DNA of 33,560 bases from Patescibacteria group bacterium. Its GTDB lineage: Bacteria; Patescibacteriota; Minisyncoccia; Phycocordibacterales; UBA9973. Both the position numbers and the translations under genes were made by a program. Positions 1,957-31,595 of the stretch are shown here, piece after piece (the stretch's first letter is position 1; each line of letters starts with the position of its first letter). Under the pieces are notes generated by a model that made no database searches, was not told the DNA's origin, and saw only the letters and a program-made list of their open reading frames with translations. Location: contig JAHJBA010000057.1 in the NCBI GenBank assembly GCA_018813625.1, positions 1 through 33,560 of the forward strand, read 5' to 3'.

Positions 1957-4104
1957 ATGGAAAGAGATTATCCGTTAGAAAAAGTTAGGAACATTGGAAT
2001 TATCGCACACATTGATGCGGGCAAAACAACGACTACTGAGCGTGTTTTGTTTTATACTGGAGTTTCACACAAAATAGGTGAAGTGCATGAGGGCGAAACT
2101 GTCACCGATTGGATGGAACAAGAAAGAGAAAGAGGAATTACTATTACCTCTGCTGCAGTTACCTGCTTCTGGACTCCGACTTATGCCAATAATGACAAAA
2201 GCAAGAAACATCGTTTTAATATTATTGACACGCCGGGGCATATTGATTTTACCGTAGAAGTAAAAAGATCTCTTCGCGTGCTTGATGGCGCTGTTGTAGT
2301 TTTTGATGGAGTAGCAGGAGTAGAACCTCAATCTGAAACAAATTGGCGTTATGCTGATGAAGCGAAGGTCCCACGTATTTGTTTTATAAATAAATTGGAT
2401 AGAACAGGTGCTTCCTTTGAACGTTCTTATGCAACGATTTTAGATCGTCTTACTAAAAAAGCTGTTCGAATGCAGATACCTATTGGTCTTGAAGAAAAAC
2501 ATGAAGGTGTTGTGGATCTTTTAAAAATGAAGGCCTATTACTTTGAAGGAGAGATGGGCAATCAGGTTATTGAAAAGGAAATTCCAGAAGAAATGAAGGC
2601 AGATGCTGAAAAGTATCGCAATGAATTAATAGAAAAAATTGTGGAACAGGACGATGCAGTCATGAATGATTATTTTGAAGGCAAAATTCCGGAGATTGAT
2701 GTTTTGAAAAAACTTTTGAGACAGGGAGTTATTGCTAATGAAATCTTTCCAGTCTATGCTGGTTCTGCTTTGAAAAATAAAGGTGTTCAATTGGTGCTTG
2801 ACGGAGTAGTCGACTATCTTCCTTCTCCGCTTGATATTCCACCAATGGAAGGAATCGATCCAAATAATGAAGAACATGTAGAAAGAAAAGCCTCAGATTC
2901 TGAACCATTTGCCGCTCTCGCCTTTAAGGTTGCGACTGATCCATTTGTGGGCCAGCTCATTTTCTTTAGAGTTTATTCCGGAACACTTGCTTCTGGGTCT
3001 TATGTTTATAATCCAAGGACTAGAAACAAAGAACGTATTGGTAGAATTTTACGCATGCACGCAAACGATAGAGAAGAGGTGAAGAAAGTTTTTGCTGGGG
3101 AAATTGCCGCTGCGGTTGGGCTTAAAGATACTATTACCTCGGACACAATTTGTGACGAAGAACATCCGATTGAATTGGATAGAATTATTTTTCCAGAACC
3201 AGTTATTTCTCTTCGCATAGAACCAAAAACCAAAGCTGATCAAGAAAAAATGGGCATGGCATTAAATAGGCTTGCTCAAGAAGATCCGACTTTTAAAGTT
3301 AGCACAGACCAAGAAACAGGAGAGACAATTATTTCTGGTATGGGAGAACTTCACTTAGAAATTATTGTTGATCGCATGAAAAGAGAATTTAGCGTTGAGG
3401 CAAATGTGGGCAAGCCACAAGTTGCTTATCGCGAAACGATTACTGGAAATTCAGAAGCAGAAGGTAAGTATATCAAGCAGTCTGGCGGGCGTGGTAATTA
3501 CGGCCATGTGAAGATAAAGGTAAAACCAATGACCATTCTCACAAAAGAAGAGATAGAAGATTTGCCTAAAAACACAAAGCGCTCGGGTGGATTCGAGTTC
3601 ATAAACAACATCAAAGGGGGGGTTATTCCACAAGAATATATTCCTGCTTGTGAGAAGGGATTTAGGGAAGGTCTTGATCGTGGAGTTTTGGCAGGATTCA
3701 AAATGGTAAATGTTTCAGTTGATCTTTGGGATGGAAGTTACCATGAAGTAGACTCAAACGAAATGGCTTTTAAAATTGCAGCTTCTATGGCAATTCAAGA
3801 TGCTTGTAAAAGAGCGAATCCAGTTATTTTAGAACCAATGATGAAGGTTGAAGTTGTCACTCCGGATAAGTTCATGGGAGATGTTACAGGTAATCTTTCA
3901 TCAAAACGTGGAATTATTGAAGGAATGGAAGAGCGCGGAATGAATAAAGTTATTAAAGCCATTGTGCCATTATCTGAAATGTTTGGTTACATGACTGGTC
4001 TTCGTTCCATGACTGAAGGAAGAGCATCATTCACTATGGAATTCATTCGTTACGATATTGTGCCAAACAATGTGGCAGAAACCATCATTGCTGCACGAAA
4101 GTAG
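1957..4104 (+). CDS. fusA: Elongation factor G
   Basis: 715 aa; [23 protein letters not shown] and NKLDR GTPase motifs. Confidence 0.97.
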
Positions 4105-4176: not shown

Positions 4177-4419
4177 ATGGAAAAGATGGAAAATAAAGAA
4201 AATTTCTTTATCGACCAAAGTAAAATAAATGAAGAGGAAAAATATGTAAGCGTGCCCGTTAATTACCCTGAATATTATGATAGAGATGATGTAGTATGGT
4301 TTTGGAATAAGGTTGAGGATGAATTGAAGAAAAAATATCCAGATATTAATTTTTCAGGAATATCAGAGGGAAAATCTGGGGAAGATGGGAAAGAAGAATT
4401 TTTGTTTTACTTTGAATAA
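4177..4419 (+). CDS. Hypothetical acidic protein (80 aa) inserted between fusA and tuf
   Basis: Intact ORF followed by a hairpin terminator; no family recognised. Confidence 0.45.
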   Translation: MEKMENKENFFIDQSKINEEEKYVSVPVNYPEYYDRDDVVWFWNKVEDELKKKYPDINFSGISEGKSGEDGKEEFLFYFE

Positions 4420-4455
4420 AGCCTTTTGTTTTGACAACACGAGGCTTTTTTTATT
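4419..4455 (+). terminator. Putative rho-independent terminator
   Basis: AGCCTTTTGTT-ttgac-AACACGAGGCT hairpin followed by TTTTTTTATTT. Confidence 0.55.
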
Positions 4456-4457
4456 TG

Positions 4458-4525
4458 ATCCCGTAGTAGATTTTGATGATGCCCTTAAGGCGCGCTTTGC
4501 GCTTCATCAAAATTCACTACCGGAT
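4458..4525. repeat. Family C palindromic element, copy C2
   Basis: ATCCCGTAGTAGATTTTGATGA ... GCGCGCTTTGCGC ... TCATCAAAATTCACTACCGGAT. About 22-bp arms, preceded by TTGAT; the last T begins the TTGACA -35 box. Confidence 0.85.
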
Positions 4526-4552
4526 TGACATTGTTTTCTAATTTGCTATTAT
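4525..4552 (+). promoter_or_regulatory. Sigma70-like promoter upstream of tuf
   Basis: TTGACA (4525-4530), 16-nt spacer, TATTAT (4547-4552). Confidence 0.6.
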
Positions 4553-4741
4553 CTTAGGTAACTGCACTTTCGGCAGTTTTTCTATTGCTAATTTATTAAT
4601 TTTAGTAATATTAAATTATTAACAATAATCCCGACGTAAAATCGGGACTCCGATCTAAAGGGTCGGAGTTTAGTTAAATTAGTAATTAAGCCTTAGCGAC
4701 TGGTTCTCGTACGTTAAGTTTTAATTATTAAAAATAAAAAT

Positions 4742-6414: not shown

Positions 6415-6544
6415 ATGAATCCCGTTAGAAGCCGCGATCGCAATTTAAAAATAGATAAAAATATGAAATCAAATATAGAAAAAATTAATAACATAAAACA
6501 TCAGATATGCGAGTTGATCGCGATCTGCTTCTAAACAGGATGAA
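6415..6544 (+). repeat. Family A start-codon hairpin element, copy A1 (between rpsJ and rplC)
   Basis: ATGAA|TCCCGTTAGAAGCCGCGATCGC ...~75 nt A-rich... GATCGCGATCTGCTTCTAAACAGG|ATGAA. Long inverted repeat with a duplicated ATGAA. Confidence 0.85.
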
Positions 6545-7154
6545 ATTTATTCTTGGAACAAAAGAAAATATGATTGAGTATTTTTCTGAAGACGGTACAG
6601 TCATACCTGTAACGGCTGTTTTGGCTGGTCCAGTGACCGTGACCAGGGTGTTTGAAAAATCCAAGGATGGATATAATGCGGTGCAGGTTGGTTTTGGTGT
6701 TCAAAAAAAACACAGAATAAGCAAAGCAAGTATAGGCCAAATGAAAGGTGGTTTTTACAAAAATCTTAAGGAATTCAGACTAAAGCCCACCGATTCAACC
6801 GATTTCAAAGAAGGTGACATAATTGATGTCTCGGCTTTTTCCATTGGCGATAAATTGATAATTTCTGGTACTTCAAAAGGAAAAGGTTTTCAGGGAGTCG
6901 TTAAGCGACATGGCTTTGGTGGTGGTCCTAGAACGCACGGGCAGAAACATTCAGAAAGAGAACCTGGATCGATTGGTGGGGGACTAAGAACCCATGTTCC
7001 TAAAGGGATGAGGATGGCAGGTAGAATGGGACAGGATCGTATCACTCAGAAAAATTTGAAGGTTATTTTCACAGACAAGGAAAATAACATTATGTTAATT
7101 AAGGGTGCAGTACCTGGCAGGCGTGGCAGTTTGGTTGAAATAATAAGTAGATAG
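6540..7154 (+). CDS. rplC: 50S ribosomal protein L3
   Basis: MKFILGTKENM... is a canonical L3 N-terminus; KGKGFQGVVKRHGFGGGPRTHG motif. The track start at 6507 lies inside repeat A1. Confidence 0.93.
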   Translation: MKFILGTKENMIEYFSEDGTVIPVTAVLAGPVTVTRVFEKSKDGYNAVQVGFGVQKKHRISKASIGQMKGGFYKNLKEFRLKPTDSTDFKEGDIIDVSAFSIGDKLIISGTSKGKGFQGVVKRHGFGGGPRTHGQKHSEREPGSIGGGLRTHVPKGMRMAGRMGQDRITQKNLKVIFTDKENNIMLIKGAVPGRRGSLVEIISR

Positions 7155-7156
7155 AT

Positions 7157-7284
7157 ATGGATCCCGTTAGAAGTCGCGATCGCGATTATAATGGAAATAA
7201 AAACATGAAAGAAGATAATAAAACACAAAAAAATATTGAAACTTCCGAAAATACCAGATCGCGACCTACTTCTAACGGGATGGA
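7157..7284 (+). repeat. Family A element, copy A2 (between rplC and rplD)
   Basis: ATGGA|TCCCGTTAGAAGTCGCGATCGCG ... AGATCGCGACCTACTTCTAACGGG|ATGGA. 14-bp perfect outer stem plus a 7-bp CGCGATC/GATCGCG inner stem. Confidence 0.85.
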
Positions 7285-7943: not shown

Positions 7944-8016
7944 ATACTTGTCCCGTGCTAAATTTTTGATTACGGGGCATAAAGATGAAGATTATTAATA
8001 AAATTTTAGTACTGGG
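7944..8016 (+). repeat. Family B hairpin element, copy B1 (between rplD and rplW)
   Basis: ATACTTGTCCCGTGCTAAATTTTTGATTACGGGGCATAAAGATGAAGATTATTAATAAAATTTTAGTACTGGG, immediately followed by the ATG of rplW. Confidence 0.85.
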
Positions 8017-15307: not shown

Positions 15308-15379
15308 TACTTGTCCCGTACTAAATTTTTGATTACGGGGCATAACAATGAAGATTATTAATAAAATTTTAGTACTGGG
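15308..15379 (+). repeat. Family B hairpin element, copy B2 (between rpsE and rplO, in the usual L30 slot)
   Basis: TACTTGTCCCGTACTAAATTTTTGATTACGGGGCATAACAATGAAGATTATTAATAAAATTTTAGTACTGGG followed by the ATG of rplO. Confidence 0.85.
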
Positions 15380-17093: not shown

Positions 17094-17099
17094 TTTTTG

Positions 17100-17164
17100 A
17101 CCTGGTAGTGAATTTTGATGATATTTAAATGCGTTTTGCGCGTCATCAAAATCTACTACCGGGT
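17100..17164. repeat. Family C palindromic element, copy C3 (arms in flipped orientation)
   Basis: ACCTGGTAGTGAATTTTGATGA ... GCGTTTTGCGC ... TCATCAAAATCTACTACCGGGT. Preceded by TTGAC; the last T begins the TTGATT -35 box. Confidence 0.85.
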
Positions 17165-17192
17165 TGATTATTTTCTAAAAAGTGTGTATTCT
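17164..17192 (+). promoter_or_regulatory. Sigma70-like promoter of adk; geometry predicts a leaderless mRNA
   Basis: TTGATT (17164-17169), 17-nt spacer, TATTCT (17187-17192), then 6 nt to the ATG at 17199. Confidence 0.55.
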
Positions 17193-17783: not shown

Positions 17784-17856
17784 TACTTGTCCCGTATGAA
17801 ATTTTTGATTAAACGAAATAAAGATGAATACAAAAAATAAAAATTTTCATACTGGG
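17783..17856 (+). repeat. Family B hairpin element, copy B3 (divergent; between adk and the pyrH-like gene)
   Basis: ATACTTGTCCCGTATGAAATTTTTGATTAAACGAAATAAAGATGAATACAAAAAATAAAAATTTTCATACTGGG followed by ATG at 17857. Both arms changed in a compensatory way. Confidence 0.8.
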
Positions 17857-18537
17857 ATGGAAGAAATAATAATCATTTCACTCGGAGGTTCACTCATTAT
17901 TCCCGATCAGATAGATGTGGATTTTTTGAAAGACTTCAAAAATCTGATTCTTTTGCATATTTCACAAGGGAAAAAATTTATAATCATAACCGGCGGTGGA
18001 AAGATCTGCAGAAGGTATCAAGAAGTTGCTAAAGAAATTTCGAATCCCTCAAATGAAGACTTAGATTGGATAGGGATTGCTTCTCTTAAACTAAATGCGG
18101 AACTGCTCAGGGTTATTTTTAGTGAAAAGGCACACGAAAAAGTTGTTAGTGATCCACACCAGAAATTGTCTTTTGAAAAGCCGATTATCATTTGTTCAGC
18201 TTATAAGCCTGGAAGGAGTACGGATTGGGATACCGTGATAGTGGCCAAGAATGTTGGTGCCAAAAAAGTAATCAATCTTTCGAACATTGACTATGTTTAT
18301 GATTCTGACCCGAAGATAAACCCAAATGCTAAAAAGATAGAAAAGATATCTTGGGCGGAATATCGTTCAATTATCCCAAAAGAATGGAATCCAGGCTTAA
18401 ATACTCCTTTTGACCCTATTGCTTCAGAAATGGCTGAAAAAGAGGGAATGCAGGTCGTAATTATGAACGGCAAGCCAGTGAGTAATTTAGCTAAGTGTTT
18501 GAATGGCGAGAAGTTTCTTGGAACGATAATAGAATGA
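17857..18537 (+). CDS. pyrH: Amino-acid-kinase-fold protein, archaeal-type UMP kinase-like
   Basis: MEEIIIISLGGS..., ITGGGK, ...SDPKINPNAKKIEKIS... and ...GTIIE resemble archaeal-type uridylate kinases of ~225 aa. The start is chosen at the ATG that follows repeat B3. Confidence 0.7.
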   Translation: MEEIIIISLGGSLIIPDQIDVDFLKDFKNLILLHISQGKKFIIITGGGKICRRYQEVAKEISNPSNEDLDWIGIASLKLNAELLRVIFSEKAHEKVVSDPHQKLSFEKPIIICSAYKPGRSTDWDTVIVAKNVGAKKVINLSNIDYVYDSDPKINPNAKKIEKISWAEYRSIIPKEWNPGLNTPFDPIASEMAEKEGMQVVIMNGKPVSNLAKCLNGEKFLGTIIE

Positions 18538-20203: not shown

Positions 20204-20276
20204 ATACTTGTCCCGTACTGAATTTTTGATTACGGGGCATAAAGATGAAGATTATTAATAAAATTTTAGTACTGGG
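20204..20276 (+). repeat. Family B hairpin element, copy B4 (between the Cys-rich ORF and map)
   Basis: ATACTTGTCCCGTACTGAATTTTTGATTACGGGGCATAAAGATGAAGATTATTAATAAAATTTTAGTACTGGG followed by the ATG of map. Confidence 0.85.
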
Positions 20277-29150: not shown

Positions 29151-30488
29151 CAACCGGACTTGGTTAAATATAGTATTTATGCGATTTTCTTCTTTGGCCT
29201 CGCCAATTATGCGTATTACTGGCTCAGTATTGGAGGGTCTAATATGAACCCATGAAGAGTCTGGCCAGTCGAAGCGTAGGCCGTCTAGGGTGTTTGTAGA
29301 TGCCTCTTTGAACTTTGCCTTAAGTTTCTCATAAAGTAGAGTTAGGTCGCCAGAAAAGGTAATTTTATCTTTTTTCATAAAATATTTAGGCAGGCTCTCT
29401 ATAATTTCTGATATATTTTTTTTCTCTCTTGCCATAAGCTCGAGAACAAGAGCAATACCGGCCAGGCTATCTCTGGCTGTATTTATTTTAGAATAAATGA
29501 CCCCACCATTTCCTTCTCCTCCTATGAGTGCGCCTCTTTCAATCATTTTTTCGACTACATTAGGTTCGCCGACTTTTGTTCTAAAAACTTTTTTATTGTA
29601 ATTATTTGCCAAGTCTTCACACATTTTTGAGGTAGACATATTTAAGATCACATCGCTAGGGTTTTTAGATAGAACACTTTTTACGGCGAGTGCTAGTGTA
29701 TATTCTTCATTTAAAATTTCTCCTTTTTCATTTGCGAGTACCAGACGGTCAGCATCGGGGTCCTGGGCGAATCCTATATCTGAATTATTTTTAGAGACTG
29801 CTTCCGCTAGTTGTTTTAAATTTTTTGCCAGTGGTTCTGGTTCGTGCGCGAATTCTCCATTTTGTTCTTCGTTGATTTGAGAAACTTCACAGCCGAGTTC
29901 CTCCAGTAATTTTTTTGTGATTGTACTGCCTGCGCTATTTATAGGATCGTGGGTAACTTTAAATTTTTTGCTTTTGATCAGGTTTACGTCTATATTTTTT
30001 AATACTTCTTTTATGTGTATCTTTTGATAGCTAGAATTGTCGCAAACTTCTTCCTCATTTTCTTTTTGTGAAAAATTTTTTTCATCTTCAATTAAATTTT
30101 TTCTATTTTCCTCGATTTTTTCTATTTCTTTTTGGGTGGCGAATAGACCATTTTTATTTATAAATTTAAGACCGTTATATTCTCTAGGATTATGCGAAGC
30201 AGTTATCATTATTCCTCCACCAAAAGAGAGTTTTCTTGCTAGAAGAAGCATCGATGGAGTAGGGATGATGCCGGCGTATTCTCCCTCTAAGCCTTCTTTT
30301 TTTAATGCTAATTTTATAGCTTTAAATATTTGTGGTCCGGTTTTGCGTGCATCTCGCCCGATTAAAATTTTATGGCCTCCTTGTTCTTTTATCATTTTTG
30401 CAAAAGCACGCCCAAAATCAAAAGCGATTTTCTCGTCTAAATCTTTGCCCCATATTCCTCTATATCCCGAAACATTCAATTTTGGCAT
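29142..30488 (-). CDS. glmM: Phosphoglucosamine mutase / phosphohexomutase family protein
   Basis: ITASHNPREYNGLKF phosphoserine loop; DPDADR; GGEGNGG. The gene symbol is tentative because PGM/PMM cannot be excluded. Confidence 0.8.
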   Translation of the reverse strand: MPKLNVSGYRGIWGKDLDEKIAFDFGRAFAKMIKEQGGHKILIGRDARKTGPQIFKAIKLALKKEGLEGEYAGIIPTPSMLLLARKLSFGGGIMITASHNPREYNGLKFINKNGLFATQKEIEKIEENRKNLIEDEKNFSQKENEEEVCDNSSYQKIHIKEVLKNIDVNLIKSKKFKVTHDPINSAGSTITKKLLEELGCEVSQINEEQNGEFAHEPEPLAKNLKQLAEAVSKNNSDIGFAQDPDADRLVLANEKGEILNEEYTLALAVKSVLSKNPSDVILNMSTSKMCEDLANNYNKKVFRTKVGEPNVVEKMIERGALIGGEGNGGVIYSKINTARDSLAGIALVLELMAREKKNISEIIESLPKYFMKKDKITFSGDLTLLYEKLKAKFKEASTNTLDGLRFDWPDSSWVHIRPSNTEPVIRIIGEAKEENRINTIFNQVRLIL

Positions 30489-30549: not shown

Positions 30550-30557
30550 CTTAGATG

Positions 30558-30947
30558 TGGAGATGGGGGGAATTGAGCCCCCGTGCAGAAGGTTTTTGTA
30601 AGGAAGTCTACATACTTAGCGCGCTTGTTTGTTTAAATTAAAAAATTATTAAGCGAGCGAAATATTTTTTAATCGATCCTCTATGTTTTGGAAGAAAGTC
30701 GAGGTATTCTTTTTCCTATCCCGATAATATTATGCCTTACCCTATATATCGGAAGTCTATAGGGAAGACACCAACTTACGCTAGAGCGTATGCTGGAGCA
30801 AATCCGAACGCATTACCGAAGTAAGGCGAACGAACTGCCTTAGTAGCTAATTTTGCAATTAGACATTTGAGCGAAGTTTTGCGAGATTGCGCTCATTCTC
30901 GGTATGCATCAATAACAAAAGGCCAACTGTCTATGCCTTGCATCCCC
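30558..30947 (-). ncRNA. ssrA: tmRNA (SsrA)
   Basis: Minus strand 5' GGGGATGCAAGGCATAGACAG pairs with the 3' ...GGGGGCTCAATTCCCCC-CATCTCC-A. This gives an acceptor stem with a G3.U pair and a T-arm. An internal frame ends ...GNAFGFAPAYALA-TAA (stop 30776-30778). Lies 11 nt downstream of smpB. Confidence 0.8.
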
Positions 30948-31467: not shown

Positions 31468-31595
31468 ATGGATCCCGTTAGAAATCATTCAGTTAATTGA
31501 AATTACGGGAAATAATATATTGAATTAGCTTGTATAGTCGTTTTTAGTAATTTAACTACGGAAATCTAAAGATTTCCTATTTCTAACGGGATGGA
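31468..31595 (+). repeat. Family A element, copy A4 (on the ftsH start codon)
   Basis: ATGGA|TCCCGTTAGAAAT ... ATTTCTAACGGG|ATGGA. 14-bp perfect terminal stem; the interior differs from A1-A3 and has the internal hairpin GGAAATC-taaa-GATTTCC. Confidence 0.85.

Follow-up and report, generated by a model that had tools for sequence, protein, structure and literature searches.

Patescibacteria have tiny, tightly packed genomes that are thought to be poor in transposable elements. Here, we analyzed a 33,560-nt stretch of one such genome, from a Patescibacteria group bacterium of the UBA9973 lineage (contig JAHJBA010000057.1, hereafter the window), in which a palindrome, C2, lies at the promoter of the elongation factor gene tuf. 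C2 is best explained as a non-autonomous member, lacking an open reading frame (ORF) and resembling a miniature inverted-repeat transposable element (MITE), of a Paceibacteria/Patescibacteria family of small mobile palindromes, a reading to which we assign a probability of roughly 0.8. The comparisons below show, at the level of sequence, that these palindromes have inserted into pre-existing promoters with duplication of TTGA, that they are widespread with variable duplications and enriched at promoter boxes, and that ~300-bp elements exist with the same arms and with coding capacity for a GIY-YIG nuclease only. We infer that this nuclease itself moves the element, and that C2 is without effect on tuf expression.

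Anatomy and empty sites of the C2 palindrome

C2 stands between two copies of TTGA, the second of which opens the tuf −35 box:

4455–4458: left target copy TTGA; a single TTGA stands here in the empty-site relatives L204, L205, L201 and L202
4459–4524: C2 element, 66 nt
4459–4479: left arm (terminal inverted repeat), TCCCGTAGTAGATTTTGATGA, pairing over 21 nt with 4504–4524
4480–4503: variable core, with two G+C-rich mini-hairpins in the predicted fold, GCC..GGC and GCGC-TTT-GCGC (4492–4502)
4504–4524: right arm, TCATCAAAATTCACTACCGGA
4525–4528: right target copy TTGA, supplying the first four bases of the −35 box TTGACA (4525–4530)
4525–4552, plus strand: tuf promoter, TTGACA, 16-nt spacer and TG-extended TATTAT (TGC-TATTAT at 4544–4552)

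The order across 4455–4552 is TTGA-TCCCGTAGTAGATTTTGATGA-TGCCCTTAAGGCGCGCTTTGCGCT-TCATCAAAATTCACTACCGGA-TTGACA, followed by the 16-nt spacer and the TG-extended TATTAT, and the C2 sequence quoted in the initial annotation is accurate. The same annotation described arms of ~22 bp with an apical GCGC-N3-GCGC mini-hairpin: the mini-hairpin is present, but the arms measure 21 bp, including one A·C and one G·T pair at arm positions 10–11 that are conserved. Compared to shuffled sequences, C2 folds with z = −6.4 on one strand and −7.1 on the other. When short and ORF-bearing elements are compared, the C2 core occupies the place of the GIY-YIG ORF of full-length elements. No other sigma-70 match in the first 20 kb of the window is as good as the adjoining tuf promoter, which matches 11 of 12 positions plus the TG.

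The history of this site can be read from relatives whose EF-Tu is 96–97% identical (L201, L202, L204 and L205, with L203 similar). There, the tuf promoter is uninterrupted, TTTGACATT...TGCTATTAT, and the same promoter and leader are found throughout L201–L205 without the palindrome. In L201, L202, L204 and L205 the promoter reads ...TATTTGACATTATTTTCTAATTTGCTATTATCTTTAGAACTGCACTTTCGGCAGTTTTT, i.e., the window minus 4459–4528, and deleting these positions from the window yields the relatives' promoter exactly in register (TATATTTGACATTATTTTCTAATTTGCTATTATCTTTAGAACTGCACTTTCGGCAG in L204 and L205; TTATTTGA-(66-nt element + TTGA)-CATTGTTTTCTAATTTGCTATTATCTTAGGTAACTGCACTTTCGGCAG in the window). 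Aligned in this way, the loci show an insertion of the element into the −35 hexamer of a pre-existing tuf promoter, with duplication of TTGA. Since the right TTGA copy restores the TTGACA hexamer with its proper spacing to the TG-extended −10 box, the palindrome looks “fused” to the promoter; the first T of the −35 box, previously taken for the last base of the repeat, belongs instead to the duplicated target, one copy of which lies on each side of the element.

Overall, the window contains three intact copies and one decayed copy of this ~65-bp palindrome, each between two TTGA or two TTTG words. The copies other than C2 are:

1804–1876: C1 (element 1808–1872), flanked by TTTG at 1804–1807 and 1873–1876; left arm decayed; in the −35 region of the fusA promoter
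17097–17167: C3 (element 17101–17163), flanked by TTGA at 17097–17100 and 17164–17167; between the secY stop and adk, abutting TTGATT-17-TATTCT
29078–29153, minus strand: C4 (element 29082–29149), flanked by TTGA at 29150–29153 and 29078–29081; abutting TTGACT-17-TAAACT upstream of infC

All three show in their sequence the same flank architecture as C2. The earlier observation that the four copies abut −35 boxes at transcription-unit boundaries stands, and the association with −35 boxes holds as an enrichment across the family, but the TTGAY flank ascribed to them does not extend to C1, which has TTTG. On either strand, the z-scores of the intact copies range from −6.4 to −7.8, while the fold of C1 is lost (z = 0.15). 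The arm motif CAAAATYYACTAC (≤1 mismatch) occurs eight times in the window, compared to 0.23 expected, with seven of the eight occurrences inside C1–C4. Since C1, C2 and C3 have in common a rare inner arm (GATGA/TCATC) and the GCGC-TTT-GCGC mini-hairpin, they have probably multiplied within this lineage.

An empty site was also found for C1, the fusA promoter of L204 being intact (GGTTTGCAAAAAAGAGATTTATGTTATATAT). At the C3 site, between secY and adk, L206 and L207 have a gap of 3–9 nt from which both palindrome and promoter are absent, and L208 carries a different palindrome, CCCACACACTTATTTTG-TATAGC-CAAAATAAGTGTGTGGG (2918–3000 of that locus), with TTGA on both sides and followed by TTGATT-17-TAATCT. 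The L208 arrangement suggests either an insertion hotspot or the replacement of one element by another. The C3 relatives show site variation only, with no clean empty site, and C4 yielded no empty site. Diverged relatives from another sample lack 4457–4524 but have unrelated sequence in its place, so that they provide no clean empty allele.

Several further observations concern these sites. C4 lies (at 29142–29153) within the last codons of a PGM/PMM-like ORF, whose stop TAG is now inside the left arm (...RLIL*); without C4, this ORF would read ...RLTLGMK* and overlap the infC promoter. Contigs of a second sample (run X2) end within C2, at 4474/4485. Downstream of the promoter, the tuf leader (4553–4741) is long, with a hairpin, AACTGCACTTTCGGCAGTT, and a T-run directly after the −10 box; a segment near the start codon, GCCTTAGCGACTGGTTCTCGTACGTTAAG, is kept in L201–L205 and the middle of the leader is variable. 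The leader has no Rfam match, and could be a 5′ stabilizer, an attenuator or another leader structure.

Target duplications and promoter register across the family

To census the family, an arm-based pattern was run against species-representative genomes, and all copy counts given here (122, 119 and 116) are among the matches listed. The element was found on at least 119 genomic stretches, all from metagenome-assembled genomes (MAGs) of Patescibacteria, of many genera, except for five stretches of a single MAG labeled Pirellulaceae. The latter represent a different repeat: their palindromes (L060, L070, L080, L091 and L110), GTAGTGGATTTTGCTAAAAATCC...GGATTTTTAGCAAAATCCACTAC, begin with GTAG like repetitive extragenic palindromic (REP) sequences and matched the pattern via a GTAGT..ATTTTG core.

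An exact, in-register flanking direct repeat of ≥3 bp was found for 106 of 122 copies, compared to 8 of 366 in a shifted control. It is most often 4 bp long (60 copies), followed by 5 bp (24) and 3 bp (19), and varies from copy to copy (TTGA, TCAA, TGCTA, TATCA, TAAGA, TCCA, TATA and others), usually with T first and A last. A repeat that is two-sided and differs between copies bears the signature of a target-site duplication and excludes insertion beside a fixed word; this also answers in the negative the question, raised in the initial annotation, of whether copies always lie 3′ of TTGAY. Tandem copies with one common duplication also occur, as at 2207–2526 of L081, where four family C copies stand head to tail with an 81-bp period and CTTG between them, i.e., a tandem of element plus duplication. 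Some copies occupy start codons, adjoin tRNA genes or lie within the end of a coding region, and orientation relative to neighboring genes is not fixed. With terminal inverted repeats, a copy-variable target duplication and empty sites in relatives, the family has three features by which a MITE is recognized.

The arms were assessed for pairing outside the bases fixed by the search pattern. Across 119 distinct copies they pair over 21 nt, with positions 1–3 and 18–21 paired in 106–116 copies through three to five types of base pair; positions 18–21 vary in sequence and keep their complementarity. Positions 10–11, in contrast to a perfect palindrome, hold one G·T and one A·C in 112 of the 119. 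An imperfection conserved in this way suggests that the arms would be recognized as a folded strand, not as a pair of identical duplex ends. The inner distance between arms ranges from 15 to 45 nt among copies.

Insertions are strongly associated with promoter boxes. A −35/−10 pair whose −35 box starts with the duplication is abutted by 29 of 116 copies (0.5% of random positions), and an extended −10 box (TGnTAnnnT) starting with a 5-bp duplication TGnTA by another 15 (0.5% of random positions), for an overall promoter-box register of 38% of copies compared to ~1% of random positions. In L092, an independent family C insertion lies in the TTGACT of that genome's own tuf promoter. The association with −35 boxes pointed out in the initial annotation holds across the family; other copies abut extended −10 boxes or start codons, or lie elsewhere. 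ORF-bearing copies favor TGGA, TATG and TGAA, i.e., host start codons, as well as GAGG (Shine-Dalgarno), while short copies favor TTGA. This difference in site spectra implies that selection after insertion contributes, through retention of insertions in which the duplication restores the interrupted signal. A real target preference is suggested as well, since TTGA exceeds other T..A words where the surroundings are equally A+T-rich.

ORF-bearing elements and competing explanations

The full-length form is ~300 bp long, with two ~21-bp terminal inverted repeats, (Y)CCN-GTAGT-RR-ATTTT..., around a single ORF of 85–90 aa that matches GIY-YIG (PF01541) only. In L093 (6729–7043), for example, the space between family C arms, here with a TAA(G/A) duplication, is filled by an 88-aa ORF that matches the Pfam GIY-YIG family with E = 2e-17 and no other domain. 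Nine such ORFs were found in 880 kb of fetched genome loci, five of them inside a family C copy or within ~120 nt of one. When an alignment of these proteins was used to scan metagenomes, 80 loci were obtained, drawn from 457 confirmed relatives; inverted repeats were present 15–40 nt before the ATG and 7–60 nt after the stop in 46 of the 73 evaluable loci. Arm type and protein vary together: C-type arms accompany proteins 60–70% identical to that of L093, and CCCCGTTAGAA arms, as in family B of the window, proteins 46–55% identical. Direct repeats of ≥4 bp flank 25 of 43 ORF-bearing elements, compared to 4 of 43 in the control, and distances between paired arms are bimodal, at ≤120 bp (130 pairs) and 251–450 bp (37 pairs). 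Arm pairs at transposase-sized distances (0.45–4 kb) numbered 11 in 1.2 Mb of fetched loci, and all were neighboring independent copies around host genes.

In the nuclease, the residues of catalytic type, Y5, Y16, R26, H30 and E62, are invariant. Its family comprises at least 7816 clusters bearing generic names only, and its nearest solved relatives are UPF0213 proteins (1zg2, E = 2e-9; 1ywl, E = 1e-7), followed by SLX1. Related ORFs without C-type arms occur at L032 1665–1952, L059 5734–5994 and L062 216–491, inside a 16S rRNA gene or next to tRNA genes, and in L059 the 5′ part of a tRNA gene is duplicated. A coupling of the ORF to the host start codon, considered from a mini-ORF 7 nt upstream in L121 (ATG GAT CCC GTA GTA GAT TTT TAA), stays no more than an idea, as the frames are inconsistent among elements.

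These features can be accommodated by the following model. In the short form, one or two G+C-rich mini-hairpins take the place of the ORF. The GIY-YIG nuclease would act in trans on the arms and mobilize both forms. It would probably recognize the arms folded as a hairpin or cruciform with the conserved G·T/A·C distortion, similar to Ssn nucleases on hairpins of single-stranded DNA (ssDNA; see below), and integration may proceed at a 4–5-bp staggered break at T-N2-3-A sites, with TTGA preferred. The excess at −35 boxes, extended −10 boxes and start codons would then come partly from the TTGA preference and partly from the survival of signal-regenerating insertions in very compact genomes. Taken one step further, this would be an unrecognized class of prokaryotic DNA transposon, in which an ~88-aa GIY-YIG nuclease, the sole protein, acts on distorted-hairpin arms of 21 bp and creates a 4–5-bp T..A duplication, with a preference for promoter boxes (−35 TTGA, extended −10 TGnTA) and start codons such that the duplication restores the signal; we propose this class tentatively, at slightly less than even odds.

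Several points weigh against this interpretation. GIY-YIG enzymes are hydrolytic and, to our knowledge, have no strand-transfer activity; characterized members leave short 3′ overhangs, which would not obviously give a 4–5-bp duplication, so that a hydrolytic nuclease would need host repair or ligation to produce one. No GIY-YIG gene is present in the 33.5-kb window, and a 267-nt contig of the source metagenome that carries a C-type left arm and the start of a GIY-YIG ORF has a depth of 2.6, compared to 16.3 for the window contig, and hence is not assignable to the genome of the window. No flanking inverted repeat was found for 27 of the 73 metagenome loci. At the C2 locus, contigs of the source run show a single form; since contigs drop rare variants, this carries no information on excision. 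Finally, target choice and selection are inseparable, as short and ORF-bearing copies favor different sites.

The repeat-less loci would also fit a scenario in which the palindromes are moved by another enzyme, either a RAYT/Y1 transposase or an unseen DDE transposase, and the GIY-YIG ORF is a selfish homing endonuclease that has invaded the palindrome loop. GIY-YIG enzymes are classic homing endonucleases, related ORFs that lack C-type arms occupy a 16S rRNA gene and positions next to tRNA genes (L032 and L059), the arms contain GTAG, a hallmark of REP sequences, and the close relative L203 carries, between rplB and rpsS (6424–7095), a 223-aa RAYT-like Y1 transposase (PF01797). The hairpins of this Y1 gene, GTACTAGGC-N3-GCCTAGTAC, are however unrelated to the arms studied here, and in 1.2 Mb we found neither a Y1 gene between C-type arms nor a transposase-sized element with these arms. 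Y1 was the partner suggested by the initial annotation; the gene actually found between the arms encodes a GIY-YIG nuclease, whose ORF exactly fills the inter-arm space, with 4–30 nt to either side, and whose subfamily co-varies with arm type. ORF-bearing copies have their own duplications, at sites (start codons) that differ from those of short copies, which indicates that they inserted as units rather than into resident short copies. REP/RAYT and IS200/IS605 systems in addition make no target duplication. Overall, we regard mobilization by another enzyme as unlikely. The same rplB–rpsS gap contains an unrelated ORF of 79 aa in L204 and, in the window, nothing but a terminator and a promoter.

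Two further scenarios assign the palindrome a function rather than mobility. As a piece of cis-regulatory DNA, it would serve as the operator of a dimeric regulator acting on translation genes, or as a terminator-plus-promoter cassette, both of which had been put forward for this sequence; all four window copies abut a −35 box and separate transcription units whose genes are translation-related, and more than a third of copies are in register with a promoter box. Yet the palindrome is absent from the otherwise identical tuf and fusA promoters of close relatives, and the −35 box stems from the target, a copy of which stands at either end of the element, rather than from the element itself. No T-run follows the C2 stem, the right arm being followed by TTGACATTG, and C2 is absent from the output of the terminator scan; the variable arm-to-arm spacing means that operator half-sites would not be at a fixed distance, and the inner arm sequence is free to vary as long as it stays complementary. 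Together with the copies at start codons, by tRNA genes, in tandem arrays and in the end of a coding region, this makes a regulatory origin extremely improbable. A primary role at the RNA level, e.g., as a structured RNA, an RNase III site or an mRNA stabilizer, with spread being incidental, would account for the very stable folds (z ~ −7), for the two apical mini-hairpins that keep their shape while their sequence changes, and for the location of families A and B (see below) inside polycistronic ribosomal-protein transcripts. We consider it very unlikely: C2 is probably poorly transcribed, as it lies upstream of the tuf promoter and downstream of a terminator-like hairpin, both strands fold equally well, orientation is not fixed, and target duplications and ORF-bearing relatives would be left unexplained. 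In Rfam, the palindrome has no match at the gathering score or at E up to 1, the sole match of the region at E ≤ 1 being a sub-threshold L10-leader that ends at 4460.

The mobile-element reading has precedents, none of which matches in full. Bacterial MITEs, such as the Correia/NEMIS elements of Neisseria, RUP and the Rickettsia palindromic elements, are short and ORF-less, with terminal inverted repeats, a target duplication and a stable hairpin; they lie in intergenic sites or in frame and interact with promoters, which Correia elements create or alter, and Rickettsia palindromic elements enter coding sequences in frame, as does family B of the window in the gene for L4. These known MITEs are nevertheless tied to DDE transposases or lack a known partner, and Correia elements duplicate TA, whereas the partner found here with matching ends has a GIY-YIG nuclease as its sole product and the duplication is a 4–5-bp T..A word that regenerates a −35 or −10 box. 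REP/REPIN-RAYT systems, IS200/IS605 and PATE elements likewise are palindromic extragenic repeats with a conserved GTAG; they further share the imperfect hairpin with a conserved mismatch, suggestive of folded-ssDNA recognition, and a small nuclease gene flanked by repeats. Insertion of REP and IS200/IS605 elements, however, occurs without duplication beside a one-sided fixed word, unlike the variable word duplicated on both sides here, and the ends of IS200/IS605 are different subterminal hairpins rather than inverted repeats. An IS200/IS605 insertion was rejected on these grounds, given the two-sided and variable flanking word, the true terminal inverted repeats and the GIY-YIG instead of Y1 gene between the arms. 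A mobile hairpin, as first proposed, is thus the right kind of element, but the mechanism proposed with it (IS200/IS605-type, 3′ of TTGAT, driven by Y1) does not hold.

By analogy, the closest known system is that of the Ssn nucleases and their NTS hairpin repeats. Ssn proteins are ~94-aa single-domain GIY-YIG nucleases that cut ssDNA beside a hairpin repeat (NTS/SRM), which flanks the nuclease gene and is scattered in hundreds of copies; the layout was noted to be similar to that of an insertion sequence, with mobility left as a hypothesis, and neither target duplications, empty sites nor insertions directed at promoters are reported, nor are Patescibacteria mentioned (Chenal et al., Nat Commun 2025, PMC11893778). 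The likeness extends to a ~90-aa single-domain GIY-YIG protein, to a gene with the repeat on either side and gene-less copies of that repeat elsewhere in the genome, to the co-variation of repeat and protein, and to a hairpin stem that starts ..TCCC/GGGA... In contrast to Ssn, where each flank is its own ~28-nt hairpin, the flanks here are mutually complementary and gene-less copies form one long hairpin; duplications and empty sites can be demonstrated, and the hosts are Patescibacteria. The published SRM motif, HGTCWYN(0-2)YYVSBRHN(0-5)WNVSBRGN(0-2)RNCYNB, has no match in the window, C1–C4 included, while the NTS control matches. A literature search returned no description of GIY-YIG inverted-repeat elements or of MITEs in Patescibacteria.

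Related palindromes in the window and their implications

Beyond C1–C4, the window contains two further palindrome families:

6415–6545, 7157–7282, 28394–28517 (minus strand) and 31468–31590: family B palindromes, arms TCCCGTTAGAAG..., containing GCGATCGC
7946–8016, 15309–15379, 17789–17860 and 20206–20276: family A palindromes, TCCCGTRCTAAATTTT...AAAATTTTAGTACTGGGA

The family B arm CCCGTTAGAAG matches the arms of a sister GIY-YIG subfamily (L152, L172, L183, L191 and L199). Each family B copy lies between two copies of a duplicated start-codon word, ATGRA. Translation runs in frame through the copy at 7157, making L4 longer by 41 residues at its N-terminus, and with the copy at 6415 L3 has an 11-residue extension. 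Family A fills the gaps from a stop to the next ATG between L4 and L23, S5 and L15, adk and the next gene, and upstream of map, where relatives have gaps of 8–18 nt. Its left flank is always TACTTG, with no duplication evident, and the arms of L133, TCCGGTACTAGAATTTT, resemble it. The relatives lack these palindromes as well: their S10–L3, L4–L23 and S5–L15 gaps are 23, 18 and 8 nt, and their L3 and L4 proteins are 204 aa and 219 aa long, compared to 215 aa and 260 aa for the window ORFs.

The window corresponds to the str/S10/spc ribosomal-protein cluster of a low-G+C bacterium, and also includes infC-rpmI-rplT, smpB, a tmRNA gene and ftsH; the close EF-Tu relatives are all labeled Paceibacterota, Minisyncoccia or Nomurabacteria. 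Most of its longer intergenic gaps are made up of palindromes of the three families, the ends of which are all (T/C)CC(C/G)GT...ACGGGA. ARAGORN reported no tRNA or tmRNA in the window, missing the tmRNA gene beside smpB (30555–30947, minus strand), which Rfam scores at 113.8 bits as its only above-threshold match in the window. The S7–fusA (1439–1780) and fusA–tuf (4177–4419) intervals hold lineage-specific orphan ORFs of 113 aa and 80 aa, and the corresponding str intervals of L204 (7345–9764) orphan ORFs of 96, 692 and 86 aa, none of them with a Pfam match; the str operon is divided into separate promoter-terminator units with variable inserts. Between S5 and L15 (15303–15380), rpmD (L30) is absent, as is usual in bacteria of the candidate phyla radiation (CPR). 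Short-read assemblies break in the palindromes, e.g., the Logan contig L001, which ends at 6444 in a family B arm.

Overall, at least three related palindrome families are found inside the most conserved operons of the cell, where they make up a visible share of the intergenic DNA of the window. The duplications, empty sites and short/long pairs represent the first sequence-level evidence that hairpin repeats associated with mini-GIY-YIG nucleases behave as transposable elements, and insertions would survive in that the duplicated target rebuilds the −35 box, extended −10 box or start codon that was hit. Since the arms break metagenome assemblies and create false N-terminal extensions, such as the 41 residues on L4, recognizing them improves the annotation of CPR genomes. 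If these palindromes do represent a new class of transposon, such elements could colonize even the ribosomal-protein operons of minimal CPR genomes, and Ssn/UPF0213-like mini-nucleases would gain a biological role.

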